Below are positions 4,829 through 64,000 of a DNA stretch of 64,000 nucleotides, one piece after another. Numbering within the stretch: the stretch's first letter is position 1; the number at the start of each line of letters is the position of its first letter. Below the pieces are notes generated by a model. The model worked only from the letters and a program-made list of their open reading frames with translations, ran no database searches and was not told the origin of the DNA. The position numbers and the translations under genes are program-made. Source of the stretch: an uncultured Gammaproteobacteria bacterium. GTDB taxonomy: Bacteria; Patescibacteriota; Microgenomatia; Levybacterales; UBA12049. The DNA is taken from positions 223,447-287,446 of the forward strand of contig CAZWXQ010000001.1 in the NCBI GenBank assembly GCA_964637955.1, written 5' to 3'.

Positions 4829-5497
4829 ATGCCTCTATCAAAACGTAAAAGAAAAAAACAGGCTGATTTTGCCAAAAACGCGATATTACTACTTTCTGGA
4901 ATGGTAATAGGAATTCTCATAATTCTATTAATCTATCCAAATAAAGAAATTGTTTCGTCCGAGTTTAAAGAAGGTGGAAATGAAATAAATAATACTTTTT
5001 CTTCGGGCGATTCTAGAATAGATGATTATTTTGCTTTTAAAATAATAGCGCCAAAAGAATATTTGGCAACTACAGATCAAATGCTTTCAAGTTACCTGAC
5101 CCAAGGAGGAATGGCGCCGCCGCGTCTAGTATTAAATAAAAATCATCAAATCATGGGAACAGATAATGGTGATTTTATAGGTAAGGTTTGGAGCTACAAT
5201 GCGAATGATTGCATAAGTATTTGGACAACTGGTGGATTGTCGTCAATTGAGCAGTGGCTTGATTTACCAAGTCTTGAGATAGGTGAGCTTTCAGGAAAAG
5301 AGACTATCAAATCCGGGACAAGAAATGTTGATTTGTATAATTTGAAGCTTAAAAACGGGAATATATTTGTAGCATTTATGCCAATAAAAAATAATTTTTC
5401 TACCTCTTATTTTTTCAGAACGTGTAATCAGAATAATAAAGAGGACCTAGTAAATGTAATTAAATCTCTCAAGCTTCGAATCGACGGCGGAATCTGA
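4829..5497 (+). CDS. N-terminally membrane-anchored hypothetical protein
   Basis: A basic N-terminus is followed by one TM helix (ILLLSGMVIGILIILLI), then a soluble domain. Confidence 0.4.
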   Translation: MPLSKRKRKKQADFAKNAILLLSGMVIGILIILLIYPNKEIVSSEFKEGGNEINNTFSSGDSRIDDYFAFKIIAPKEYLATTDQMLSSYLTQGGMAPPRLVLNKNHQIMGTDNGDFIGKVWSYNANDCISIWTTGGLSSIEQWLDLPSLEIGELSGKETIKSGTRNVDLYNLKLKNGNIFVAFMPIKNNFSTSYFFRTCNQNNKEDLVNVIKSLKLRIDGGI

Positions 5498-20792: not shown

Positions 20793-22295
20793 ATGAGGAA
20801 ATTAATTTTTTCTGCTTTTTCGATTATTTTTCTAGCTTTAGTTTTTGTTCCTGATAGCTTGGCTGCAACTACTTCAACCCTTCTTCCAACAGCTGATGGA
20901 GCATACTCTCAATTCACACCAAAAAGCGGATCAGTACATTACACTCAGGTAGACGAGGCATCATGTAATGGAAATACTGATCATAATAGAACTACAGTAG
21001 TTGGATCAAGAGACTCTTATATTGTTTCACTGTCTTCGATACCAAATAATTCTACGATAACTCAAATATCATTAACTCCTTGCGCGTCAAGAAATTCAAC
21101 TGGTGGTGTAAATCCTCAATTAGATTTATTTTATCGATTAAATGGTGTTAATAGTGCAGATGCGGGCGCATATTCACTTACCGGCACAGCTCCGATTGAT
21201 TTATTATCAACAAATTTTTCAGGGCTTTCGATTGTAAAAACTGTTTCAACAACTCTTGAAGTAGGAGCAGTCTTAACTTCAAGTACAAAGGGGGTAAAGC
21301 TAGGTAGATTAGCGACTGTTATAACTTATACTCTTCCCTCACCAACTGCAACTACAAGTAGCGCTACGAATGTAATGACTAGCGGATCATCTTCATCAGC
21401 AACTCTTAATTCTATAGTCAATCCAAATGGAGTAAGTACTAGTGTATTTTATCGTTATGGTTTATCAAACGTAGAATGTAGTTCTTTGACTTCATCAACA
21501 AGCGCTGTTGCCATTGGATCTGGAACTTCTAGTGTTAGTCCTAATGCAACCAGCGTAGGGTCTCTTAACCCCGCTACCACATATTATTTCTGTGCTGTTG
21601 GGACGAGTGCAAGTGGAACTTCATATGGAAATGTACTTTCGTTCGTTACTCCTGGTTCAGCTCCGACAGTTACGACTAATACTGCAACAGATTTATCTAC
21701 GAACTCAGCGATTCTTAATTCGACCGTTAATCCAAACGGAGTCTCGACTTCAGTGAGTTACAAATATGGTACTGTAAATACAACTTGTGATTTACTTTCC
21801 TCATCGACAAGCGCAACTGCTATTGGATCAGGAACATCTGATTTAACGCCTAATGCGAAAAGTGTTGGGTCACTAAGTCCTTCTACTGCATATTATTTCT
21901 GTGCAGTGGGAACTAGCTCAAGTGGCACAGCATACGGTAATGTAATTTTATTTACAACTTCTGCTCTTCCAATTGCTCCGACTGTTACCACAAATGATGC
22001 TACCGAGTTGGCTGTAGTTGGTTCATCTGCTTCGGCAAGTTTAAATTCAACAGTTAACCCTAACGGCACTAGTACAACTGTTAGATATAGATATGGTACT
22101 ATAAATACTGCTTGCAGTGCTTTGGGTAATCAGACCTCAGTAGTCAATATTGGTTCAGGAAGTCTAGATGTTTCTCCCAACACTAGGTCTATTGGTTTTT
22201 TGCCAAAAAATACAACTTTCTATTTCTGTGCAGTAGCAGCCAATTCTGTTGGAACTACATACGGAAATGTCCTCTCCTTTACAACTCTCCCATAA
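20793..22295 (+). CDS. secreted protein with an N-terminal signal peptide and three tandem Fn3-like repeats
   Basis: Signal peptide FLALVFVPDSLAA. Three ~100-aa repeats share NPNG.ST...Y.YG...C...IGSG......YYFCAV.....GT.YGNV. Likely cell-surface protein. Confidence 0.6.
   Translation: MRKLIFSAFSIIFLALVFVPDSLAATTSTLLPTADGAYSQFTPKSGSVHYTQVDEASCNGNTDHNRTTVVGSRDSYIVSLSSIPNNSTITQISLTPCASRNSTGGVNPQLDLFYRLNGVNSADAGAYSLTGTAPIDLLSTNFSGLSIVKTVSTTLEVGAVLTSSTKGVKLGRLATVITYTLPSPTATTSSATNVMTSGSSSSATLNSIVNPNGVSTSVFYRYGLSNVECSSLTSSTSAVAIGSGTSSVSPNATSVGSLNPATTYYFCAVGTSASGTSYGNVLSFVTPGSAPTVTTNTATDLSTNSAILNSTVNPNGVSTSVSYKYGTVNTTCDLLSSSTSATAIGSGTSDLTPNAKSVGSLSPSTAYYFCAVGTSSSGTAYGNVILFTTSALPIAPTVTTNDATELAVVGSSASASLNSTVNPNGTSTTVRYRYGTINTACSALGNQTSVVNIGSGSLDVSPNTRSIGFLPKNTTFYFCAVAANSVGTTYGNVLSFTTLP
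21340..22295 (+). repeat. three tandem ~310-bp coding repeats (Fn3-like modules)
   Basis: Protein-level periodicity is clear. DNA copies have diverged (estimated 60-70% identity by eye). Confidence 0.6.
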
Positions 22296-25182: not shown

Positions 25183-26637
25183 ATGCATAAAAAATTTACT
25201 AATATAACAGAAGCTTTAAATCAAACTACTAGAAAAAGTATACGCTGGTGTACGCCATCAATTGATGTAGACAATGAAAAAGTAAAAAATATTTACGAGA
25301 GCGATATGTCGGTGTCGCTCGAAGGTTTAGGTTTTCCTACGGAACCATCAGGAATATTTCTTGAAGCATATGAAAAAGCTGCAAATGCATACGGAAGCGA
25401 CAAAACACTTTTTTCCGTAAATGGATCGACTGGTGGAAATTTTATTATTCTTAGATCACTTGCAAAGCAAATTCCCAACATTAGAATTTTAGCACAAAGG
25501 AATATACATAAATCAGTTCTTAATGCATGTCAAGATTATGGAATTAATCTTCTTTTTGTTGATGCACATATAGATTCACATCTTCAAATATTTTTACCAA
25601 ATTCTATAAAGGAAATTACTCAAGCAATTCAAAAGACAAAGCCACATGTTTTCTTAATTACGAATCCAACCTATGAAGGCTTATCAGTTGATCTTAAAAA
25701 ATTGATTAAAGCTATCCGATTAATTAATCCAAAAATAATAATTTACATTGAAGAAGCATGGGGTTCGCATCTTGTTTTTTCAGATCAACTTCCAGTTTCA
25801 GCAATGCAGGCAGGGGCCGATATTTGTGTCCAAAGTACTCATAAGCAAGGGGGATCTCTTCAGCAGGGGGCAATGATACATTGGAACGAAGAGAGAGTTG
25901 ATTCGAGTTTGCTTGTGGAGTCTTATCGAAATCTTTCTACATCAAGCCCATCATACATATTATTGGCATCAATTGATGCTTCGCGTGAACAGATGGAAAA
26001 AAATGGTGATAAGATAATTGAAAGATCTCTTAAAATTGCTAAAAAACTTTCAAATGAACTAGATTTGATTTCAGGATTTAGAGTCATTAAATTGGAAAAT
26101 TTGAAAAAGAAATCAAATTCTATTTTTGATAAAGACGAAACAAAAGTTATACTAGATGTTTCTAAATCAGGACATACAGGCTTTGAGTTATCTAAAATTC
26201 TTGAGGAGAAATACAATATCATCGTTGAAAAGTATAATGCTACGAGCATTTTGTTTTTAGTGCCATTTCAGGCAAAAGAAGATAATGTTAAAAAAACAAT
26301 TAAAGCATTAAAAGAAATAATTAATGATTTTACACCAGTTCAAAAAATAGTTATTCCGCCACTTCTTGAAATTCCTACAAATGTATCTAGAATTTTAGAA
26401 CTTGGTGAAGTTGCAAAATTATTTCAAAATCAGATCGAAAAAATTCCATTAGCTGAAGCTAAAGGGAGAATATCCGCTGAAAATATTACACCATATCCAC
26501 CTGGTATTCCAACAACTATTCAGGGGGAAGAGTTCACAGCCAAATCAATATCTTTTTATCAAAATATCCATAATTATCCAAATAGTCATGTTCTAGCTCA
26601 TGATACAACTCTCCAGACAGTTCTTGTGGTAAAGTAA
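25183..26637 (+). CDS. PLP-dependent Orn/Lys/Arg decarboxylase-family enzyme
   Basis: 484 aa. S-T-H-K (VQSTHKQGGS) PLP-lysine motif of the PF01276 major domain, with overall fold-type I architecture. Confidence 0.7.
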   Translation: MHKKFTNITEALNQTTRKSIRWCTPSIDVDNEKVKNIYESDMSVSLEGLGFPTEPSGIFLEAYEKAANAYGSDKTLFSVNGSTGGNFIILRSLAKQIPNIRILAQRNIHKSVLNACQDYGINLLFVDAHIDSHLQIFLPNSIKEITQAIQKTKPHVFLITNPTYEGLSVDLKKLIKAIRLINPKIIIYIEEAWGSHLVFSDQLPVSAMQAGADICVQSTHKQGGSLQQGAMIHWNEERVDSSLLVESYRNLSTSSPSYILLASIDASREQMEKNGDKIIERSLKIAKKLSNELDLISGFRVIKLENLKKKSNSIFDKDETKVILDVSKSGHTGFELSKILEEKYNIIVEKYNATSILFLVPFQAKEDNVKKTIKALKEIINDFTPVQKIVIPPLLEIPTNVSRILELGEVAKLFQNQIEKIPLAEAKGRISAENITPYPPGIPTTIQGEEFTAKSISFYQNIHNYPNSHVLAHDTTLQTVLVVK

Positions 26638-26644
26638 ATTTAAT

Positions 26645-27541
26645 ATGGGAATATTTTTCGCAATTCTTTCCCCTGCAATATTTGGCGTAAATAATTTCAT
26701 AGATAAATTTTTATTAGAAAAAAATAACATAAGTCCAATCGTAATGACTATTTACGGTGGTATTTTTGCTTGCGTTGCTGGATTTTTAGTATTTTTGTTA
26801 ACAGGATATTATCCAGTTGATGCAAAGTCGTTATTTATTTTAATTTCGTCAGGATTTTTAACGACAATGTATCTTTTTCCGTATTATAAAGCTCTTGATC
26901 TTGATGAGGCATCAAATGTTGTACCACTCTTTCAATTTTATCCAATATTTGTATTAATTTTAAGCCTTTTTCTTTTAAATGAGCAATTTTCTTTAATTCA
27001 ATATTTTGGATGCGCGCTTATTATTGGAGCTGGATTTTTGTTATCTGTTGAGAAAGCAGACAGAAAAATTTTCAGACTTAGAAAATCTTTCTACTATATG
27101 ATGCTCTCTTGCTTACTTTTTGCTGTTGCTCAAGTTTTATATAAATTTGGAGTAGAGGAAGTTCCTTTCTGGAACACGCTTCCATACGAGGCATTAGGAA
27201 TTGCGATTGGCGCAATTGTGGTAGCGCTATACAAGAGAAATTATAAGCAATTTATTCATGAAACAAAAAAGTTTAAAAAAAATGTTTTCGTTTATCTTTC
27301 AATAAACGAATTCGTTTATATTTTAGCTAGGTATACAGGATATTTTGCTTTGTCATTGTTAACTGTTGGAATTGTAAGTATATTAGCAGGGCTGCAGCCT
27401 TTATTTGTGTTAATTTATGGAATCATTTTGTCTATCTGGTTCCCATATATTCTTAAGGAAGTGATAACTAAAAAAACTGTGAGTTTAAAATTATTTTCAA
27501 TTCTAATAATAATTTTAGGATCTTTCTTTATTTTCTATTAA
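26645..27541 (+). CDS. EamA/DMT-superfamily transporter
   Basis: 298 aa with about 10 TM helices in two repeated halves. Confidence 0.7.
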   Translation: MGIFFAILSPAIFGVNNFIDKFLLEKNNISPIVMTIYGGIFACVAGFLVFLLTGYYPVDAKSLFILISSGFLTTMYLFPYYKALDLDEASNVVPLFQFYPIFVLILSLFLLNEQFSLIQYFGCALIIGAGFLLSVEKADRKIFRLRKSFYYMMLSCLLFAVAQVLYKFGVEEVPFWNTLPYEALGIAIGAIVVALYKRNYKQFIHETKKFKKNVFVYLSINEFVYILARYTGYFALSLLTVGIVSILAGLQPLFVLIYGIILSIWFPYILKEVITKKTVSLKLFSILIIILGSFFIFY

Positions 27542-28432
27542 TTTTTGCTTGGATTCACTATCAACTGAATCTAGAAATTTGGCAACTTCACTCATATACA
27601 GTTCAGGTTCTTCAAGATGCGCCATATGGGCACTTCTTTTAAATACGATCATCATTGATCCAGGGGTTCTTTCCTGAAAACTTTGAAGTGTGCTTGGTCT
27701 AACTTCATCATTTGCTCCACAGGTGTAAAGGACAGGGCAATTAATTTCCCCAAGTCTATCTAGTACGCTAAACCCAACAAGATTTCCTGTAGGATTATAT
27801 TCAGAATCGCCCCACATCGTTTCATAAACTGTGCTTCCGAATTCTTCTTCTGCCTCAGCGATCACAGGAAGGTTAGATGCGGTTCCATATCCAAATAAAG
27901 TATCAAATGCTGATTTAAATTCATCATCTGCTTGATTTCCACTTGTCTCATGGAGAAGATTAGCTAGATCTACTGCATCTCTTCTGAAAATTTCGGTATC
28001 AATTAATGGGCTTGCAAGTACTGCGCTAGCAATCCCAGCTGGTTTGTTATCGATTAGATATTTAGCTACAACACTTGCTCCATACGAGTGTCCAAGTAAA
28101 TGAATATCTTTTACTCCAAATTTCTTTCTTAATTCAAATATTAATTTATCTAATTCTTCAACAGATCGTTCTATTGTCCAAAGCGATGGATCATCAGGTT
28201 TATCGGAATTTCCACATCCTAATTGATCGTATAATATGACTGGTCTTTCATGTTTGGTGTGCATTTCTGTTAATGGATCAAGATAGCGAGTAAATCCTGG
28301 TCCTCCATGAACAATGAGTAGGGGTGGTGTTTCTGAAGGAACTCCTATGGCTTCATACCAAACTTTACCTTTATCAAGTTGAAGAGCTCCTTCGATTCTG
28401 TCAATTTCTATTGGTCCTTCTTCAGTAGCCAT
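27515..28432 (-). CDS. alpha/beta-hydrolase, proline iminopeptidase-like (S33)
   Basis: HGGPG oxyanion motif, GHSYG nucleophile elbow, C-terminal His. Confidence 0.75.
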   Translation of the reverse strand: MATEEGPIEIDRIEGALQLDKGKVWYEAIGVPSETPPLLIVHGGPGFTRYLDPLTEMHTKHERPVILYDQLGCGNSDKPDDPSLWTIERSVEELDKLIFELRKKFGVKDIHLLGHSYGASVVAKYLIDNKPAGIASAVLASPLIDTEIFRRDAVDLANLLHETSGNQADDEFKSAFDTLFGYGTASNLPVIAEAEEEFGSTVYETMWGDSEYNPTGNLVGFSVLDRLGEINCPVLYTCGANDEVRPSTLQSFQERTPGSMMIVFKRSAHMAHLEEPELYMSEVAKFLDSVDSESKQKLIENKERS

Positions 28433-28454
28433 ATGTTAAATAAATTATGAAATA

Positions 28455-29363
28455 TTATAGTTCTGTTATTGTATATTTTTTAAGATAATAAACAGGGCGC
28501 CATAATTGTTTAGCTTTTTTAAGTCCTGGAATTCCTAAATCTTGTTCAAAGTTTATATATTCACATCCTAAATCTTTTAGATGCTTCGCAGTTAGATGAT
28601 TCAAGTAAGCATATATTCCTTCAAATGAAGAATCGCCTTTTTCAAAAGTAATTAGTGCATATTTTTCTTGAAGCGCATGATACGTAGAAAATCCAACTAA
28701 TTTATTATCCACATATACTCCAAATGAAAAAATATTTAGCACATTTGTTAGTTCAAAGAGTTTTTTAATTGCTGTAAGCTCAGTTATAGTTTCTTTTCTA
28801 TCTCGGCCCTTTTGTTCTTCCCAAACATAAAACAAATTTTCTATTTCTTTCTGCACATCTTCGTCATTGATATCTAATGTTTTGACATTATGATTTGGAT
28901 AAAGTCTGTTGAATCTATTGATTAGATTTCTTTTATCATAATATTTTTTTCCTTCTAAGCTTGCGATTTCGTCAACGGAAAGAATGTAATCAAAACTATT
29001 TGGATCATCCTGTACTAAAAACTGATTTTCCAAAAAGCCTTCTTTAGAAAAATTTACTTCAGGGACAAGAAACAACTTATTGCCTAATCCTTCATCTTTG
29101 CTTTTTTTGATTAGTGTGCTAACTGTATTTATTAAGTTATTACACCCAAGAAAAGAATAAAATAAATTACCCGTTAAGAAATCTTGAATTTTTATTACCA
29201 GATTGTCATTTAATATTGAAATTGAATTTAATTTTTTTTCATCATAGGTCCATAAACTTACAAATTCAAAATCATTAAAAGGAGGGAATTTATTGTTTAA
29301 AATTTCTATATCATGAAAATCGCTTAATTCTATTTTTTTGGAATCAGGAAATAATGGCAACAT
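28455..29363 (-). CDS. DUF2156 (phosphatidylglycerol lysyltransferase C-terminal-like, GNAT-fold) protein
   Basis: 302 aa. Pattern ...DYILSVDEIASLEGKKYYDKRNLINRF......ENLFYVWEEQK resembles stand-alone LPG-synthase-C domains. Confidence 0.5.
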   Translation of the reverse strand: MLPLFPDSKKIELSDFHDIEILNNKFPPFNDFEFVSLWTYDEKKLNSISILNDNLVIKIQDFLTGNLFYSFLGCNNLINTVSTLIKKSKDEGLGNKLFLVPEVNFSKEGFLENQFLVQDDPNSFDYILSVDEIASLEGKKYYDKRNLINRFNRLYPNHNVKTLDINDEDVQKEIENLFYVWEEQKGRDRKETITELTAIKKLFELTNVLNIFSFGVYVDNKLVGFSTYHALQEKYALITFEKGDSSFEGIYAYLNHLTAKHLKDLGCEYINFEQDLGIPGLKKAKQLWRPVYYLKKYTITEL

Positions 29364-41226: not shown

Positions 41227-42657
41227 GTGGAGGATATTTCAGTTTCTGATAAACTCAAAGAGAAAAGTGGAAAAAAAAGATTATCAAATATTGCTTATCA
41301 ACGTCACTTTAAGTTAGTTTTTTCAGGAATTATTATAATAAATGTTATTTTAATTCTTTTATTTCTTTTCCTCCGATCCGATATGTATAGGCTTTCAAAA
41401 ACCGTAATAGTAAATAGTTCACAAAATACGAATGATAGTGTTGATTTTCCAGTAATAAAAACAAGTAAATTAGTTTTAGAAAAAGGAAGAGTTTTAATAA
41501 CAAACGACTGCGATTATGAGTCGAAGTTTATATGTAAGCTTTACATTCAAAATAGAGATGGAAATAATAAAGTAGATTTACTTAGCGTATTTGATTATTC
41601 AAAAGGTGATGCTGCAGGGAATTTCGAAGGATTAAAGCTTGAGGGGAATGTAGGTAAAAATCTAGTATACTCAGAAACATATTATGCAAAAAAGTCATCA
41701 GATAATCAACCTATCTACAAAAATACATTAGGTTATATTAATTTAGTAAATGGTAAAAAAACTTTAATTGAAAACTTGACTCAATGGTCGGATTCTAAAA
41801 AACAAAACGAAGTAGGTGAAAAAGGAGTAATAATCCAAATTATTCCAATTGAAGAAAGAAATTCTGTAGTTTATTCTTTAAGTGAAGACGATAAATATTA
41901 TATAAAGGAATATAATTTCGATACAAAAGAAACAAAAATTGTAGTTGATAGTAGTAAGTTGCAGCCCGAGCCAAATTTTTATAATAATCTCCTAGAGGTT
42001 AATGAAGAATCAGATGCTTCACGCCAAAGGACAGTTTACTTGCTTCCTCCGCCTGTCGTAATTCATCAATTGGGTAAAGATATAATTGTGCTTAAGTTGA
42101 TTACTGGAGGAATCGGTAAAACAAAAAGAATAGATCTTGCTACGGGTAAATATTTTGATTATTCTTTTATTCCAAACAAGCTAAGTAATATAGTTAGTAA
42201 TGGTGAAAAAATTGCTTATACCTATATAAATTCCTCTGGATATGAAGTTCTGGAGGTTGTTGAAGCAAGAGATAATAAAAGATTAGTGATCTATAAAAGA
42301 TTATCAGCCGATAATTTAGGAATCATTAAATTTGGTTTTATGGGAAATATTTTATTATTTCAAGAATCCCCAGGTAAAATTTTCGCCTGGAATAGTAATC
42401 TATATTCATCAAGTTCTCAGTCTGATTTTGATTCAATTAATGAGCAATTTTATGAAGAAAGTCAAAATTATAGAAAAAATAATAACAATTTAGATAACTT
42501 ATTTATTCTTTCTAGAAATGTATATAATGGTAGTTTTTCGCAAGATAAACACACTTTAGCTAAATTGGTATTTGAAAATAGAAATAAAACCTTCAAAATA
42601 GAAGAATCAAAAGCATTTTCTACAACCGCAAAAGATTCGATGTTAATTAAATGGTGA
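41227..42657 (+). CDS. large N-terminally anchored Asn/Lys-rich protein
   Basis: 476 aa with a single N-terminal TM helix. GTG start in the ORF track. Confidence 0.4.
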   Translation: MEDISVSDKLKEKSGKKRLSNIAYQRHFKLVFSGIIIINVILILLFLFLRSDMYRLSKTVIVNSSQNTNDSVDFPVIKTSKLVLEKGRVLITNDCDYESKFICKLYIQNRDGNNKVDLLSVFDYSKGDAAGNFEGLKLEGNVGKNLVYSETYYAKKSSDNQPIYKNTLGYINLVNGKKTLIENLTQWSDSKKQNEVGEKGVIIQIIPIEERNSVVYSLSEDDKYYIKEYNFDTKETKIVVDSSKLQPEPNFYNNLLEVNEESDASRQRTVYLLPPPVVIHQLGKDIIVLKLITGGIGKTKRIDLATGKYFDYSFIPNKLSNIVSNGEKIAYTYINSSGYEVLEVVEARDNKRLVIYKRLSADNLGIIKFGFMGNILLFQESPGKIFAWNSNLYSSSSQSDFDSINEQFYEESQNYRKNNNNLDNLFILSRNVYNGSFSQDKHTLAKLVFENRNKTFKIEESKAFSTTAKDSMLIKW

Positions 42658-51669: not shown

Positions 51670-52176
51670 ATGGCAGATGCAAATTTTGTAAATCAAATAG
51701 ATAGAAGACAGGACGAGTTTGAAGAGAAAATCGTTCAGGTAAGTCGTGTTTCTAAAAAAACAAAAGGTGGAAATAAGATTGGTTTTTCAGCCCTAGCTGT
51801 TGTTGGAGATGGAAAAGGAAGAGTAGGAGTTGGGCTTGGAAAAGCTCCAGATGTTTCAGCAGCCATAAGAAAAGGAGTTTTAACAGCAAAGAAAAATCTA
51901 GTAGAAGTACCAATTATTAATGGAACAATTCCATTTGAATTCTATATAAAGCTTGGAGCTGCAAAGGTTTTAATTAAGCCAGCACCTCCTGGATCAGGTG
52001 TAATTGCTGGAGGAGCTGTAAGAAGTGTAGTTACAGCAGCTGGAATTCATAATATTTCTTCAAAGGTTTTAGGAACTAAGAATAAGCCAAGTAATGTTTA
52101 TGCAACCATCGAAGCATTAAGACTTTTATCTGAGAGATATAAGAGAGAAGAGGAGAGAAAAAATGGCGTTAAATAA
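51670..52176 (+). CDS. rpsE: 30S ribosomal protein S5
   Basis: VSRV.K..KGG....F.ALAVVGDG.GRVG.G.GKA..V..AI.KG. Confidence 0.95.
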   Translation: MADANFVNQIDRRQDEFEEKIVQVSRVSKKTKGGNKIGFSALAVVGDGKGRVGVGLGKAPDVSAAIRKGVLTAKKNLVEVPIINGTIPFEFYIKLGAAKVLIKPAPPGSGVIAGGAVRSVVTAAGIHNISSKVLGTKNKPSNVYATIEALRLLSERYKREEERKNGVK

Positions 52177-58700: not shown

Positions 58701-58839
58701 AATAGGTAGGATTGCTGAGGTCGCTAACAAATTTTCACGCTGCGATCGCGCTTTGAATTTAGTTTAAAGACAAGATACAAGTGCCCGCTGTACTTCGCTT
58801 CGAAAATTTGCCAGCTCCCCGCAATCCTTAATTTTTATA

Positions 58840-59319
58840 ATGAGAAAACAAGTATTTGGTAGAAAATTTAAAAGAGATAAAAATGAAAGGAAAGCCTTAT
58901 TTAGCGGGCTTATTTCTGGTTTGATTTTGAAAGGTAGAATTTCTACAACTCTAGAAAAAGCTAAGGCAGTTCAGGGTGATGCTGAAAAATTAGTTACAAG
59001 AGCAAAAAAAGGTGAAGCAGCTCGAATCGAATTAAAAAAAAGCTTAAAACCTTTTGAAGTTGATAAAATGATTAATCAAATTGCTCCAGTTTTTAAAGAT
59101 AGACCTGGAGGATATACTAGAATTATTAAAACAGGAAAGAGGTTTAGCGATAACGCATCAACTGCTATTCTTGAATGGGTGGAAGTAATTCCGGAAATTG
59201 CAAAACCAGAACCTAAAAAAGCTAAAAAAGAAATAGCAAAACCAGTTGAAAAGAAAACAAGTCGATTAAGTTTGAGAAAGTCAGCTGATAAGAAACCGGC
59301 TAAGAAGGAGACTAAATAA
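58840..59319 (+). CDS. rplQ: 50S ribosomal protein L17 with a Lys-rich C-terminal extension
   Basis: FGRKFKRDKNERKALF..L...LI..GRI.TT..KAK. A 139-bp GC-richer spacer separates it from rpoA. Confidence 0.9.
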   Translation: MRKQVFGRKFKRDKNERKALFSGLISGLILKGRISTTLEKAKAVQGDAEKLVTRAKKGEAARIELKKSLKPFEVDKMINQIAPVFKDRPGGYTRIIKTGKRFSDNASTAILEWVEVIPEIAKPEPKKAKKEIAKPVEKKTSRLSLRKSADKKPAKKETK

Positions 59320-59798
59320 TGCAATCAACTAAAGCATCAGAAATAAAAAGAGAGTGGCACATAATAGATGTAGATGGTAAAGTTTTGGGTCGAGTTTCTA
59401 CCGAAATCGCAGGACTTCTTATGGGAAAAAGTAAGCCAAATTTTGTTAGAAATCTTGATTGTGGTGACTATGTTGTGGTTATTAATTCAAAAAAGATTAA
59501 AGTTACTGGTAAAAAAGAACATGATAAGCTTTACAGAAGACATAGTGGCTATCCAGGAGGGTTCAGAGAAGAAAGATTAGAGGAGCTACGAGCGCGAAAG
59601 CCAAATGATATAATAGTGCACAGTGTTAAGGGGATGCTCCCTCAGAACAAATTAAGAGATCAAATGTTATTAAGACTTAAGATTTTTGAAGGAGCAGAGC
59701 ATGAATATATGGATAAGTTTGGAAAATCCCACTCCGCTAAAGCTTCGGAGGGACAAGTGAAAGAGAAGGGAGAATCTAAGCCAGAGGTTCAGGTTTAG
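59319..59798 (+). CDS. rplM: 50S ribosomal protein L13
   Basis: KREWHIIDVDGKVLGRVSTEIAGLLMGK.KP.F. Confidence 0.95.
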   Translation: MQSTKASEIKREWHIIDVDGKVLGRVSTEIAGLLMGKSKPNFVRNLDCGDYVVVINSKKIKVTGKKEHDKLYRRHSGYPGGFREERLEELRARKPNDIIVHSVKGMLPQNKLRDQMLLRLKIFEGAEHEYMDKFGKSHSAKASEGQVKEKGESKPEVQV

Positions 59799-59807
59799 TT
59801 TTAAGAT

Positions 59808-60287
59808 ATGGCAGTTAAAAATCATGAATTAACAAGCGTAGGTGGAACAAAAAAGTATAAAGACTTTATGTTTGCTGTTGGAAGAAGAAGGGCGGCTGTT
59901 GCTCGAGTTAGAGTGTATTCAAAAATTCCAGATGATTTCAAATTTGGAGAATATTTAGTTAAAAAAGGAGATATGGTAGTAAATGGAAGAAATATTACTG
60001 AATATTTTTCAGGTGCTGCTTCTAAGGCTACATATGAAAAACCTTTAATACTGACAGAATCCTTAAATAAATATTCTATTACCGCTAGAGTTCAAGGTGG
60101 AGGTCCACAGTCGCAGTTGGGAGCATTTGTATTAGGAATGTCTAGAGCTCTTGCAGCAATTGATGAAGCCTCAAAGCCAACTCTTAGAAAAAATGACCTT
60201 TTGACTCGTGACCCACGAGTAAGAGAGAGAAGAAAAGTTGGAATGGGTGGAAAGTCACGTGCAAGAAAGCAGTCTCCAAAGAGATAG
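59808..60287 (+). CDS. rpsI: 30S ribosomal protein S9 (N-terminally extended)
   Basis: GRRRAAVARVRV...GGG..SQLGA...G.SRAL...D......L.K..LLTRDPR..ERRK.G..GKSRARKQSPKR. Confidence 0.9.
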   Translation: MAVKNHELTSVGGTKKYKDFMFAVGRRRAAVARVRVYSKIPDDFKFGEYLVKKGDMVVNGRNITEYFSGAASKATYEKPLILTESLNKYSITARVQGGGPQSQLGAFVLGMSRALAAIDEASKPTLRKNDLLTRDPRVRERRKVGMGGKSRARKQSPKR

Positions 60288-60385
60288 AATTTATCATCAA
60301 TAATTCAGGTTAAATTAGTTGACGTCATTCCCTGCCAAAAAATGCTTTTTATGCCTATAAAAGCTATAATATAAAGGTATAAGAT

Positions 60386-61522
60386 ATGAACCTAAGAAAT
60401 TTTGCGCAAGCTGCTGATAGAAGAAAAGCTCTAGAGAATGATCAAAATAAAACACTTGAAGCTATTGGAAGTTTCACCCTCGATGAATTAGTCGTTTCCT
60501 CAAAAAATTGCGAAAACTTAATAGGTGCAACTCAAGTTCCTCTAGGCGTAGCGGGCCCACTTAAAGTTAAAGGATCTACATTTGAAAATGATTTTTATAT
60601 CCCTCTAGCTACTACAGAAGGAGCATTGGTTGCTTCAGTTAGTCGCGGTTCAAAAGCAATATCCGCATCTGGAGGAGCACATTCATTTGCATATAGAATA
60701 GGTCAAACACGCGGGCCTGTTTTTGAAGTAAGTGCTTTGGAAGAGCAAAAAAAAGTGTATGAGTGGATAATGAATAATGAAAGCAAATTGAAAGACATTT
60801 CAGAGGCCACATCTTCACATTTAAAATATAAAAAACTTAAAGTTAGCGGGCTTTCAAATTATATATTTGTGCGTTTTTATTTTGATACAAAGGATGCCAT
60901 GGGCATGAATATGGTTACTATCGCAACAGATGCTATCTCAAAGCTTATTGAGAAAGAGACAGGAGCACGGCTCATTTCAGTTGCAGGAAATTACGATATT
61001 GATAAAAAGCCTGCATGGATAAATTTTATAAATAATAGAGGTTTTAAAGTTTGGTCAGAAGTTATTTTAACTCGTGATGTTCTTGAGAATGATTTGAAGA
61101 CGAGTGCATCAAAGTTTTTCGATGTTTGGCTTGCGAAATGTATGATTGGGTCTGCTATGAGTGGCTCTTTGGGATTTAACGCTCAGTATGCTAATATTAT
61201 CGCTGGAATATTCATCGCAACGGGTCAGGATCCGGCGCACATTGTAGAAGGAAGCATGGGTATTACGACAGCAAAAGCATTAGATAATGGAGATCTTCAT
61301 GTTAGTATATATTTGCCAGCACTTCAGATTGGAGTGGTTGGTGGAGGAACAAATCTTGGAACTCAAAAAGAAGCTTTAGAGCTGTTAGGAGTAAAAGACG
61401 CTGGAAATGTCGAAAAGTTTGCTGAAATAATTGGAGGAGCGGTTTTAGCTGGAGAAATATCCTTGCTTTCAAGCTTATCTGAAGGTACACTTGCAAAAGC
61501 ACATAAAGAGCTAGGAAGATAG
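60386..61522 (+). CDS. class I (archaeal/eukaryotic-type) HMG-CoA reductase
   Basis: 378 aa. CENLIGATQVPLG, TTEGALVAS, DAMGMNMV and VVGGGTN motifs are class I signatures. Confidence 0.85.
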   Translation: MNLRNFAQAADRRKALENDQNKTLEAIGSFTLDELVVSSKNCENLIGATQVPLGVAGPLKVKGSTFENDFYIPLATTEGALVASVSRGSKAISASGGAHSFAYRIGQTRGPVFEVSALEEQKKVYEWIMNNESKLKDISEATSSHLKYKKLKVSGLSNYIFVRFYFDTKDAMGMNMVTIATDAISKLIEKETGARLISVAGNYDIDKKPAWINFINNRGFKVWSEVILTRDVLENDLKTSASKFFDVWLAKCMIGSAMSGSLGFNAQYANIIAGIFIATGQDPAHIVEGSMGITTAKALDNGDLHVSIYLPALQIGVVGGGTNLGTQKEALELLGVKDAGNVEKFAEIIGGAVLAGEISLLSSLSEGTLAKAHKELGR

Positions 61523-61533
61523 TTAAAAGTTAT

Positions 61534-62571
61534 ATGACAGGAATAGTTGGATACGGAACATACATACCAAAGTTTAGAATAAAGTTAACAGATATTGCTG
61601 ATGTTTGGAAAAAAGATCAGGATGAAATTCTAAATGGATTTAAAGTTACTGAGAAATCAGTTCCGGCATTTGATGAAGATGCTGTAACCATTGGAATCGA
61701 AGCTGGAAAAAACGCTTTTAGTTTGGCAAATATAGATCCAAAAAAAGTTGGATGTGTATATTTTGGTTCAGAAAGTCATCCCTATGCAGTTAATCCTTCG
61801 TCATCAATAGCTGCTGAATATCTAAAAATTGGACCTGATTATATGGCAGCTGATCTTGAATTTGCATGTAAAGCTGCAACAGCAGGAATGCAGATTTCAT
61901 ACGCACTCATTGAAGCTGGAAAAATCGATTACGGACTTACAATTGGAGCTGATACAGCTCAGGGTAAGCCTCATGATGCTCTAGAATATACAGCAGCAAG
62001 CGCAGGAGCAGCTTTTTTACTTGGGAATAAAAAAGAAGAGATAATTGCTGAAATACTAGCATGCTCTTCCTATACATCTGACACGCCTGATTTTTGGAGA
62101 AGAGATGGAATGCGTTATCCTTCTCATTTTGGGAGATTTACTGGAGAGCCTGCGTATTTTATGCATGTAATTAGTGAAGGTAAAAAATTATTGGAAAAAA
62201 GTAAATTAAAACCTACAGACTTTGATTACGGCGTATTTCATATGCCAAATGGAAAATTTCCTAGGCTTGCAGCAAAAAAATTAGGGTTTACCGAAGATCA
62301 AATTGCACCCTCATTGATAGTAGACAAAATTGGAAATCCATATTCTGCATCTTCACTCACTGGTTTGGCAGCAGTCTTAGATATTGCTAAGCCTGGAGCA
62401 AATATATTTTTCGTTTCATATGGTTCAGGAGCCGGCTCTGATGGTTTTATTTTTAAGACAACAAAAAATATTTCAAAGATAAAAAATAAAAGTAAAACAG
62501 TAAATGAGCAAATAGAAAATAAAGAATATATAAGCTATTCACAGTACTTGAAGCAAACACACACTTTATGA
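61534..62571 (+). CDS. archaeal-type HMG-CoA synthase
   Basis: 345 aa. MTGIVGYGTYIPKFRIK N-terminus, active-site Cys in EFACKAATAGM. Length and layout match archaeal HMGS rather than bacterial MvaS. Confidence 0.8.
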   Translation: MTGIVGYGTYIPKFRIKLTDIADVWKKDQDEILNGFKVTEKSVPAFDEDAVTIGIEAGKNAFSLANIDPKKVGCVYFGSESHPYAVNPSSSIAAEYLKIGPDYMAADLEFACKAATAGMQISYALIEAGKIDYGLTIGADTAQGKPHDALEYTAASAGAAFLLGNKKEEIIAEILACSSYTSDTPDFWRRDGMRYPSHFGRFTGEPAYFMHVISEGKKLLEKSKLKPTDFDYGVFHMPNGKFPRLAAKKLGFTEDQIAPSLIVDKIGNPYSASSLTGLAAVLDIAKPGANIFFVSYGSGAGSDGFIFKTTKNISKIKNKSKTVNEQIENKEYISYSQYLKQTHTL

Positions 62572-62614
62572 CCCATTCGACGTACTCAGGGTTGATAGTG
62601 AGTGAAATCGAACT

Positions 62615-63760
62615 ATGAAAATAAACGTTTTAGGCGTAGCAACAACTGAATTTGGAGAGCTTTGGGATAAATCTCCAAGAGCACTTGCAAGGCAAGCTGT
62701 AAAAGAGGCATTGGAAGATGCTAAGATGGATATTTCTAAGATCGATGCGCTTTATGTGGGCAACATGCTTGCCGGAATTTTGGGCAATCAAGCAAACTTA
62801 GGAGCATTATTCGCAGAAGAATTGGGATTATCTGTCCCGGCAGTAAGAGTAGAGGGAGCATGTGCATCTGGCGGATTGGCTCTTAATAGTGCCATTAATA
62901 GTATTTTGTCAGGACAGTATGAAAATGTGTTGGTTCTTGGAGTAGAAAAAATGACTGATTCTAGCCAGGATGACGTTACAACAGGGCTTATGGCGGCAGG
63001 TTCTGATGATGAAAGAATGGCAGGCGCTACTTTTCCGGGAATTTATGCATTAATGGCTCAAGCATATATGGATAAATATAAGGTTACGGAAGAAAATATC
63101 GCAGCTGTTTCAGTAAAAAATCATTATCATGGATCTTTAAATGAAAAAGCGCAATTCAGAAAAGCGATAACTGTAGATGATGTTATGAAGAGTGGCAGAA
63201 TAGCTGATCCATTAAAACTTTTGGATTGCTCTCCAATTTCAGATGGTGCATCAGCTGTGGTAATTAGTAAAAATAAGCCAAGTAAAGGAAAATCAGTCAC
63301 TATTTTAGCAAGTGAAGTAGCGTCCGATACTCTTTCATTGCACGATAGAAAATCATTTGTTTCACTTGATTCAGTAGTTAGGTCTTCTGCTAAGGCATAT
63401 AAGGCTGCTGGGATAAAATCAAAAGACATAGATGTCGCAGAAATACATGATTGTTTTTCTATAGCTGAAGCAATTGCGGTTGAGGATTTGGGTTTTTCTG
63501 AAAGAGGAAAGGGTGCAATCGACATTGAAAAAGGATTAATGACTATTGGAAAAGGAAAGATTATTACAAATCCATCTGGAGGATTGAAAGCTTGTGGACA
63601 TCCTGTAGGAGCGACAGGGATTAAACAAATTGTAGAAATTGCCACTCAACTAAGAAACGGCGCAGGAGAGCGTCAGGTAAAGGGAGCAAAGATAGGGCTT
63701 ACTCATAATGTAGGAGGTTCAGGAGCAGTATCTGTTATCCATATATTATGCAAAGCATAA
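62615..63760 (+). CDS. archaeal-type acetyl-CoA acetyltransferase (thiolase)
   Basis: 381 aa. Catalytic Cys in EGACASGG, C-terminal His/Cys region (GHPVGATG...NVGGSG). Confidence 0.8.
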   Translation: MKINVLGVATTEFGELWDKSPRALARQAVKEALEDAKMDISKIDALYVGNMLAGILGNQANLGALFAEELGLSVPAVRVEGACASGGLALNSAINSILSGQYENVLVLGVEKMTDSSQDDVTTGLMAAGSDDERMAGATFPGIYALMAQAYMDKYKVTEENIAAVSVKNHYHGSLNEKAQFRKAITVDDVMKSGRIADPLKLLDCSPISDGASAVVISKNKPSKGKSVTILASEVASDTLSLHDRKSFVSLDSVVRSSAKAYKAAGIKSKDIDVAEIHDCFSIAEAIAVEDLGFSERGKGAIDIEKGLMTIGKGKIITNPSGGLKACGHPVGATGIKQIVEIATQLRNGAGERQVKGAKIGLTHNVGGSGAVSVIHILCKA

Positions 63761-63863
63761 ATTTAAAATTTGAAATTTTCAATCAAATTAAAATGTCTAA
63801 AACTTAAAAATTTAGAATTAAATATTCATTAAAAATTGAAAACTTAAAATTAAAAATTAAATC

Positions 63864-64000
63864 ATGATTACAACACCAGTAAAGCTTTGGAGAAGACAAA
63901 AAGATGTAGCCAATCATATTGGAAGAGTGGGTGCAATTTTAAATTGGACAATTGTTAGAGTTCCTCCACGTGCATTTCATCACGAGGCTCCGTATCCGAT
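63864..64000 (+). CDS. DUF35 OB-fold protein (archaeal thiolase/HMGS partner), N-terminal part; runs off the window
   Basis: MITTPVKLWRRQKDVANHIGRVGAILNWTIVRVPPRAFHHEAPYP fits the DUF35 OB-fold pattern (G.v.S.T.V...P..F....PY). No N-terminal Zn ribbon is visible. Confidence 0.45.
   Translation, partial: MITTPVKLWRRQKDVANHIGRVGAILNWTIVRVPPRAFHHEAPYP

Follow-up and report, generated by a model that had tools for sequence, protein, structure and literature searches.

A complex of thiolase, 3-hydroxy-3-methylglutaryl-CoA synthase (HMGS) and a DUF35 protein has reportedly been described from M. thermolithotrophicus by Voegeli et al., in PNAS in 2018, under the structure code 6ESQ. For the bacteria of the candidate phyla radiation (CPR) there is also published work on such genes: according to Hoshino & Gaucher (2018, Mol Biol Evol 35:2185; PMC6107057), most Microgenomates carry exactly the mevalonate gene set that concerns us here, the genes being clustered and linked to prenyl synthase genes, and the CPR sequences form their own clade beside those of archaea, from which the presence of the set in the CPR ancestor was inferred. 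Peregrinibacteria genomes had been described with a mevalonate pathway in 2016 (PMC4736985). An archaeal-style upper mevalonate pathway in CPR has been in print since 2018, and the locus presented here is a textbook example of it. It lies at the end of a stretch of 64,000 nucleotides of contig CAZWXQ010000001.1 (by "the window" we mean this whole stretch), and consists of genes for HMG-CoA reductase (HMGR), HMGS and thiolase, followed by the beginning of a gene for a DUF35 protein that lacks the zinc ribbon. We think it likely that these genes make up the half next to the promoter of a mevalonate operon that Levybacteria have inherited vertically, with a functional minimal DUF35 scaffold. The ribbon-less DUF35 is apparently the only part that is new to the literature: the word "DUF35" occurs 0 times in Hoshino & Gaucher 2018 (PMC6107057), and our literature search found no paper joining DUF35 with Patescibacteria or describing the short form without ribbon.

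The four open reading frames (ORFs), recognised as an archaeal-type module in the initial annotation, all run in the same direction and are arranged as follows.

60386..61522, forward strand: HMGR, class I (NADPH-type), 378 aa (PF00368, TIGR00533, 6hr7)
61534..62571, forward strand: HMGS, archaeal-type, 345 aa (NF003274, TIGR00748, 6esq_I)
62615..63760, forward strand: acetoacetyl-CoA thiolase, archaeal-type (SCP2-like), 381 aa (NF004720, 6esq_A)
63761..63863, forward strand: spacer between thiolase and DUF35, 103 nt, AT-rich, with stops in all three frames
63864..64000, forward strand: 5' part (45 codons) of the OB-only DUF35 gene, with its ATG at 63864 and the ORF passing the window end

The reductase (PF00368, E=1.5e-121) had been assigned to class I, and not to class II, on account of its DAMGMN and EGALVAS motifs, and this assignment stands. 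Both motifs are found (EGALVAS at aa 78-84, DAMGMN at aa 170-175), and the predicted protein scores 412.3 bits on the class I model TIGR00533 (cut-off 441.8 bits) against 52 bits on the class II model TIGR00532 (cut-off 260 bits). Its closest structure in the PDB is 6hr7, an archaeal class I enzyme (E=2e-98); human and plant class I enzymes follow at about 1e-71, the class I structures together spanning 2e-98 to 1e-69, and those of class II match at 5e-10 or weaker, in the range of 1e-7 to 1e-10. DKKPA, GQDPA and AKAH are present as well and align, together with TTEGALVAS, with 6hr7 and with the plant enzyme. The catalytic residues of human HMGR are E559, K691, D767 and H866, and the catalytic Glu, Lys, Asp and His of class I are conserved in the window protein. 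Judged by its scores and motifs, the predicted enzyme groups with class I and not with class II: it has in common with the class I HMGRs of archaea and eukaryotes (6HR7, human 1DQ8) the fold family, the positions of the catalytic Glu/Lys/Asp/His and DAMGMN, and it differs by a shorter N-terminus, the alignment starting at its residue 12 against residue 56 of 6hr7.

The other three genes had been read as the archaeal thiolase/HMGS/DUF35 trio and not as part of the MvaS/MvaA pair, and here too the initial reading is borne out, the archaeal models being passed and the bacterial HMGS model failed. HMGS reaches 499 bits on NF003274 (above the cut-off) and 464 bits on the archaeal equivalog TIGR00748 (cut-off 353), against only 108 bits on the bacterial model TIGR01835 (cut-off 360), and the thiolase reaches 474 bits on NF004720 (cut-off 420). 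In the PDB, the HMGS is closest to 6esq_I (E=7.6e-118) and the thiolase to 6esq_A (E=8.7e-90), which are the HMGS and thiolase chains of the M. thermolithotrophicus complex; with the DUF35 protein included, the best matches of the three proteins are the three chains of one complex, 6ESQ. The motifs GSESHPYA, EFACKA, FHMPNG and GNPYSAS are kept in HMGS, with the catalytic set Glu/Cys/His/Asn present, and the thiolase keeps GACASG (aa 81-86), HDCF (aa 278-281) and GHPVGATG. The capacity for mevalonate synthesis that had been suggested for this organism is supported by the predicted proteins, the catalytic motifs of thiolase, HMGS and HMGR all being intact.

The genes of the lower pathway, which the initial annotation proposed to seek downstream, can be followed on a public contig of 11,265 bp (L001) that is identical to window 58745-64000 (5256 nt, zero mismatches) and runs about 6 kb further. 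After DUF35 it carries a GHMP kinase of 352 aa (179 bits on TIGR00549), a methyltransferase-fold protein of 287 aa, another GHMP kinase (329 aa; 201-223 bits on mevalonate kinase models), a Cof-type HAD phosphatase and then a diphosphomevalonate decarboxylase (253 bits on TIGR01240, cut-off 171); both kinases, which belong to the mevalonate kinase family, score over the cut-off of TIGR00549. On the opposite strand, in convergent orientation, lie a candidate type-1 isopentenyl diphosphate (IPP) isomerase, with a weak match, and a polyprenyl diphosphate synthase. The gene spacings in the operon go from -23 to +103 nt, several starts overlapping the previous stop, and from this gene list and these spacings it follows that the four window genes are the head of a complete mevalonate operon.

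This context, with HMGR and the lower mevalonate pathway flanking the genes, bears directly on the idea that the trio might be a repurposed acyltransferase of the PhlABC/MucABC kind, serving secondary metabolism instead of mevalonate synthesis. It is true that PhlA/PhlC/PhlB and MucABC chains occur among the PDB matches, but the archaeal mevalonate complex matches far more strongly (for HMGS, about 1e-118 against 1e-57), and the HMGS Glu/Cys/His/Asn and thiolase Cys/HDCF, which are lost in the repurposed complexes (PMC12960953), are intact here. We give practically no credence to an acyltransferase of this kind, which the intact active sites and the pathway context together rule out.

If the assignments made above are correct, the thiolase would convert two acetyl-CoA into acetoacetyl-CoA, an unfavourable step, and HMGS would take up this product at once to form HMG-CoA, pulling the condensation; the DUF35 protein would clamp thiolase and HMGS together around a common CoA site, by analogy with the M. 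thermolithotrophicus complex. The class I HMGR would turn HMG-CoA and NADPH into mevalonate, the two kinases and the decarboxylase would lead from mevalonate to IPP, and the isomerase from there to dimethylallyl diphosphate (DMAPP). Prenyl synthases would finally build the polyprenyl carriers, which most plausibly serve the synthesis of cell wall and glycans; the organism itself is presumably unable to make its own fatty acids.

Two genes of the operon stand outside this scheme. The methyltransferase-fold gene (L001 6519-7382, about 2.5 kb past the window end and between the two kinases) has the fold of class I S-adenosylmethionine (SAM) methyltransferases and belongs to a small family with 13 database matches; of the related operons, about 38 in number, 7 have it. 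The PDB proteins nearest to it, YcgJ and BH2331, are uncharacterised, and the glycine-rich SAM loop SGPG has become SRHG in the L001 copy. We considered and rejected a role as prenyl-diphosphate methyltransferase: the matches are generic class I ones only, farnesyl diphosphate methyltransferases being no better than many others. The gene for the HAD phosphatase (Cof-type HAD-IIB, L001 8342-9190) shares 23 nt with the kinase gene before it and 4 nt with the start of the decarboxylase gene; 8 related loci have it as well, and it sits among phosphorylating steps.

It is on the origin of these genes that we depart from the initial annotation, which proposed an inter-domain transfer into this genome. 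Relatives were found by a thiolase scan, with one genome per species. The nearest thiolase loci come from metagenome-assembled genomes (MAGs) of Candidatus Levybacteria/Levyibacteriota (82-55% identity), Levyibacteriota being part of the Microgenomates group of Patescibacteria/CPR; archaeal thiolases, mostly of Methanoperedens, start at about 53-54% identity. No named archaeon is found among the best 120 HMGR homologues (86-59% identity), whose five named sources are all Levybacteria, Roizmanbacteria or Patescibacteria, and the nearest homologues of all four genes belong to CPR bacteria. About 38 CPR loci repeat the gene order HMGR-HMGS-thiolase-DUF35-kinase-(methyltransferase)-kinase-(HAD)-decarboxylase, the archaeal loci having only the order HMGS-thiolase-DUF35 in common with them.

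The window itself offers a marker of its lineage in its ribosomal protein genes, where S5 (51670-52176) and L15 (52163-52603) share 14 nt and are not separated by an L30 gene. An S5-L15 junction without intervening L30 is a hallmark of CPR. With its nearest relatives in Levybacteria and this junction, the genome is CPR-like, as had been supposed, and by these markers the host is a Levybacteria (Microgenomates, CPR) bacterium. Many species records titled "uncultured Gammaproteobacteria bacterium" (L003-L037 and others) carry the Levybacteria operon, at 55-82% identity, and because they carry it these titles look like placeholder mislabels.

Neighbour-joining (NJ) trees of the locus-derived proteins, which are unrooted, were built without outgroup and have a sample dominated by Methanoperedens, split CPR from archaea with bootstraps of 100/100 for thiolase and 98/100 for HMGS. 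Identity within CPR falls to 46-48%, which is as deep as the distance between CPR and archaea (about 52%). The operon genes have a third-position GC content (GC3) of 0.18-0.24, against 0.17-0.29 for rplQ/rplM/rpsI, and their overall GC likewise matches that of the neighbours. Of the signs of a recent island that we looked for, none was found: there is no compositional anomaly, no patchiness (the operon is in all of the about 38 related loci) and no nesting in archaea.

A recent transfer, in which this genome or its close ancestors took the four-gene module from an archaeon, would account for enzymes of a type otherwise typical of archaea, and for the fact that the best non-CPR relatives of the thiolase are archaeal (about 53% identity). 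It would not account for the rest. Every closest homologue is from CPR, and CPR form a clade of their own with an internal divergence as deep as their distance to archaea; about 38 relatives keep the operon, including lower-pathway genes of bacterial/eukaryote type that are not at the archaeal locus; the composition of the genes is that of their surroundings; and according to the inference in print the CPR ancestor already had these genes (PMC6107057). We regard such a transfer as extremely improbable, and the initial proposal fails, all four genes falling in a bacterial clade. The premise behind it, a general absence of isoprenoid precursor routes from CPR, is mistaken where this lineage is concerned, most Microgenomates carrying the gene set (PMC6107057), and the locus can serve to correct what has become a common shorthand. 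Because the order is kept in about 38 relatives, GC3 matches and the CPR clade is separate, our conclusion is that the operon, as far as sequences allow one to judge, is vertically inherited in Levybacteria and was not recently transferred between domains.

A much older event is another matter. The upper-pathway genes may have passed from an early archaeon to the CPR stem and have been inherited vertically from then on, which would change their origin only and leave their function the same. CPR sequences do group with archaea, other bacteria having thiolase II and a different HMGS clade (PMC6107057), and a CPR-archaea identity of about 52% fits either history; the unrooted NJ trees do not discriminate common descent from a very ancient transfer. 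However, the CPR gene trees match the CPR species tree, with CPR placed outside archaea, and inheritance from a common ancestor was favoured in the published work (PMC6107057). We consider an exchange at the CPR stem possible, without expecting it.

We now come to the DUF35 protein itself, which had been thought to lack its N-terminal zinc ribbon although only the beginning of the gene lies in the window. The complete gene confirms this: in L001 it occupies 5120-5422 (window 63864-64166) and encodes 100 aa with zero Cys, the OB domain PF01796 being the only match (E=4e-9), without any match to PF12172. The ATG is preceded, at a distance of two codons, by a TAA stop, and the 103-nt spacer has stops in each of its frames; therefore there is no N-terminal extension and no room for a zinc-ribbon exon. 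Against the PDB chain 6esq_E (E=2.4e-7), residues 19-100 correspond to 48-128 of the chain; the HMMER search of the PDB also aligns residues 6-20 with 3-17 of the M. thermolithotrophicus DUF35, and the two alignments bracket the ribbon, which is formed there by residues 18-47.

This is not a peculiarity of one genome. In the CPR loci, the ORF after the thiolase has 97-111 aa and no CxxC in all cases except two kinase fusions, whereas in the archaeal loci DUF35 has 129-147 aa with two CxxC in all cases. In the alignment, a block of about 32 columns with all four Cys is missing in every CPR row; what is kept in CPR is the N-terminal P-V-x-x-W-R peptide and the OB domain, and W9, R10, G23, P43, Y44, Q60, V75, R80, I91, Y93 and K96 are invariant in CPR and archaeal DUF35 alike. 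A profile run against 1.8 billion cluster representatives had 676 matches, of which the best 150 (50%-identity representatives) were classified: 100 of these 150 are proteins of 90-115 aa without CxxC, and 19 have a ribbon. Two divergent short forms occur in the same HMGR-HMGS-thiolase-DUF35-kinase context, on contigs that carry CPR-typical pilin genes. We conclude that the loss of the zinc ribbon is, on the evidence of these predicted proteins, a genuine feature across a large part of the lineage.

The time of this loss can be placed with the help of one exception. Locus L087 has, at 708-1115, a DUF35 of 135 aa with both CxxC (P0281) in a CPR-type cluster with thiolase, two kinases, decarboxylase and a Nudix isomerase, and its thiolase is 61% identical to Levybacteria thiolases. 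A ribbon-bearing DUF35 in such a cluster indicates that the ribbon was lost inside the CPR radiation and was not primitively absent. Another protein, P0364 (133 aa), is a full-length DUF35 in which all four ribbon Cys are replaced (KFKKSG...IDPETG), and would represent a second, independent route to a zinc-free DUF35. Two loci, L011 (11140-12504) and L012 (4795-6153), have one ORF each, of 454 and 452 aa, in which the OB-only DUF35 continues in frame into the first GHMP kinase: the stop codon has gone and the Met of the kinase is still there; an assembly error is unlikely here because the two MAGs are only 82% identical in DNA.

For a structural view, an 82%-identical homologue of the window protein was modelled as a single chain with AlphaFold2 (pLDDT 81). 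The model is an OB barrel whose best match is to the 6ESQ DUF35 chains (E=2e-7, TMq 0.70), followed by the DUF35s PhlB, MucC, BbsA, ChsH2 and Shy, all of which have 127-146 residues. In a related complex, contact with the thiolase-like partner is made primarily through the N-terminal helix and the OB subdomain, and the zinc finger shapes the substrate cleft (PMC12329534). It is because the parts kept in CPR (the WR peptide and the OB domain) form the main interface that we read the ribbon-less DUF35 as a functional minimal scaffold. By analogy, thiolase, HMGS and DUF35 would probably form a complex in Levybacteria. A bolder version of the same idea, that the zinc-free DUF35 is a natural minimal scaffold which assembles a channelling complex through the WR peptide and the OB domain and may recruit the next enzymes, we put forward only tentatively; the fusion of DUF35 and kinase in L011/L012 hints at a larger mevalonate metabolon. 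If it were true, scaffolding would not require the zinc ribbon that all solved DUF35 complexes have kept.

Several observations weigh against the interpretation that we propose and should be acknowledged together. The HMGR score on TIGR00533 is about 30 bits under the equivalog cut-off (412.3 against 441.8), a shortfall that coincides with the missing N-terminal segment, the match beginning at model position 33. Both L001 kinases score as mevalonate kinase, and it is by inference that one of the two is given the role of phosphomevalonate kinase. The type-1 IPP isomerase candidate has a weak match, of 39 bits where the cut-off is 127, and the design of the NJ trees, as described, limits what they say about inheritance. 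Concerning the scaffold, each of the three proteins contributes residues to the lining of the CoA site in 6ESQ (PMC6392133), and the loss of 32 residues could change or abolish channelling. We also looked in the CPR thiolase and HMGS for compensating insertions that would replace the ribbon, and found none of more than 4 aa.

This last result, taken with the fact that every solved DUF35 partner keeps a zinc site and that the ribbon is gone here, could suggest that the OB-only protein is a decayed remnant, with thiolase and HMGS working independently, or that it has some other role. A decaying gene would nevertheless not be expected to look like this one: the median dN/dS is 0.15 (0.03-0.05 for the closest pairs), which argues that the gene is under strong purifying selection and not decaying; the protein keeps a constant 97-111 aa and its place right after the thiolase in lineages that are less than 50% identical; the residues in common with archaeal DUF35, the N-terminal WR among them, do not vary; and in related loci the DUF35 start often overlaps or abuts the thiolase stop, suggesting translational coupling. 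We think that a vestigial DUF35 is unlikely, and retain the reading of a functional minimal scaffold.

The surroundings of the four genes add the following features.

59808..60287, forward strand: rpsI (ribosomal protein S9), an ORF with PF00380 on the identical gene in L001
60288..60385, forward strand: spacer of 98 nt between rpsI and HMGR, with no recognisable regulatory RNA

The rplQ-rplM-rpsI run ends with rpsI, which is an upstream neighbour only: it stands 98 nt from the HMGR start in the window (its end being at 60287), 2-4 kb upstream of HMGR in many Levybacteria loci, and it is not in the 10-kb flank of the operon in the closest relatives. The spacer after rpsI has an RNA fold z-score of +0.39 against shuffles and no Rfam match, and that before DUF35, at +0.52, gives no stable fold and no Rfam match either; a search of L001 against Rfam was equally without match, and a scan for promoters and terminators found signals no better than their own shuffles. 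The thiolase-DUF35 spacer (63761-63863) is very AT-rich, with repeated words of the kind AAAACTTAAAA; the gap between these two genes is 2-10 nt in most related loci and 107-148 nt in a few.

Elsewhere in the window, the stretch of lowest GC (0.31) is 25183-29363, with genes for an Orn/Lys/Arg decarboxylase, an EamA transporter, an alpha/beta hydrolase and a 302-aa protein that has the C-terminal domain only of phosphatidylglycerol lysyltransferase. For two long ORFs, 20793-22295 (500 aa) and 41227-42657 (476 aa), Pfam gave nothing at E<=0.001.

How, then, does this locus compare with what has been described? With the MvaS/MvaA (class II) operons of Gram-positive cocci it shares the chemistry of the pathway and a lower half made of GHMP kinases and diphosphomevalonate decarboxylase, but on the models of those enzymes the window HMGS has 108 bits (cut-off 360) and the HMGR 52 bits (cut-off 260), and the window thiolase is of the SCP2/archaeal type whereas those operons have thiolase II. 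With the CPR cluster of Hoshino & Gaucher (PMC6107057) it agrees in gene set, clustering, synteny with prenyl diphosphate synthase and lineage (Levybacteria being Microgenomates). The gene set is found in the genes of L001 with the scores given above, and host and clade are CPR; nothing substantive differs, the window locus adding the methyltransferase-fold gene and the HAD phosphatase in the operon.

The comparison with the solved DUF35 complexes is where the locus has most to offer. A large and diverse set of ribbon-less DUF35 proteins amounts to an experiment made by nature, from which one could learn what the coupling of the unfavourable thiolase step to HMGS requires of DUF35, part by part, and such a protein would be a smaller, metal-free scaffold for the engineering of mevalonate production. 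In PhlABC, MucABC, BbsAB, Ltp2-ChsH2 and Sal-Shy, an enzyme of the thiolase fold has a DUF35 OB domain as its partner, as here; all of these keep a zinc site (C4 or C3H1), whereas the window DUF35 has none, and the active sites of PhlABC and MucABC are rewired, whereas those of the window thiolase and HMGS are intact. The M. thermolithotrophicus complex is closer, with the same HMGS-thiolase-DUF35 gene order and with catalytic residues that are conserved in the window proteins; the differences are that the window DUF35, with 100 aa against 130 aa, is without the C4 zinc ribbon of about 32 residues, that HMGR and the lower pathway are in the same operon here, and that the host is bacterial.

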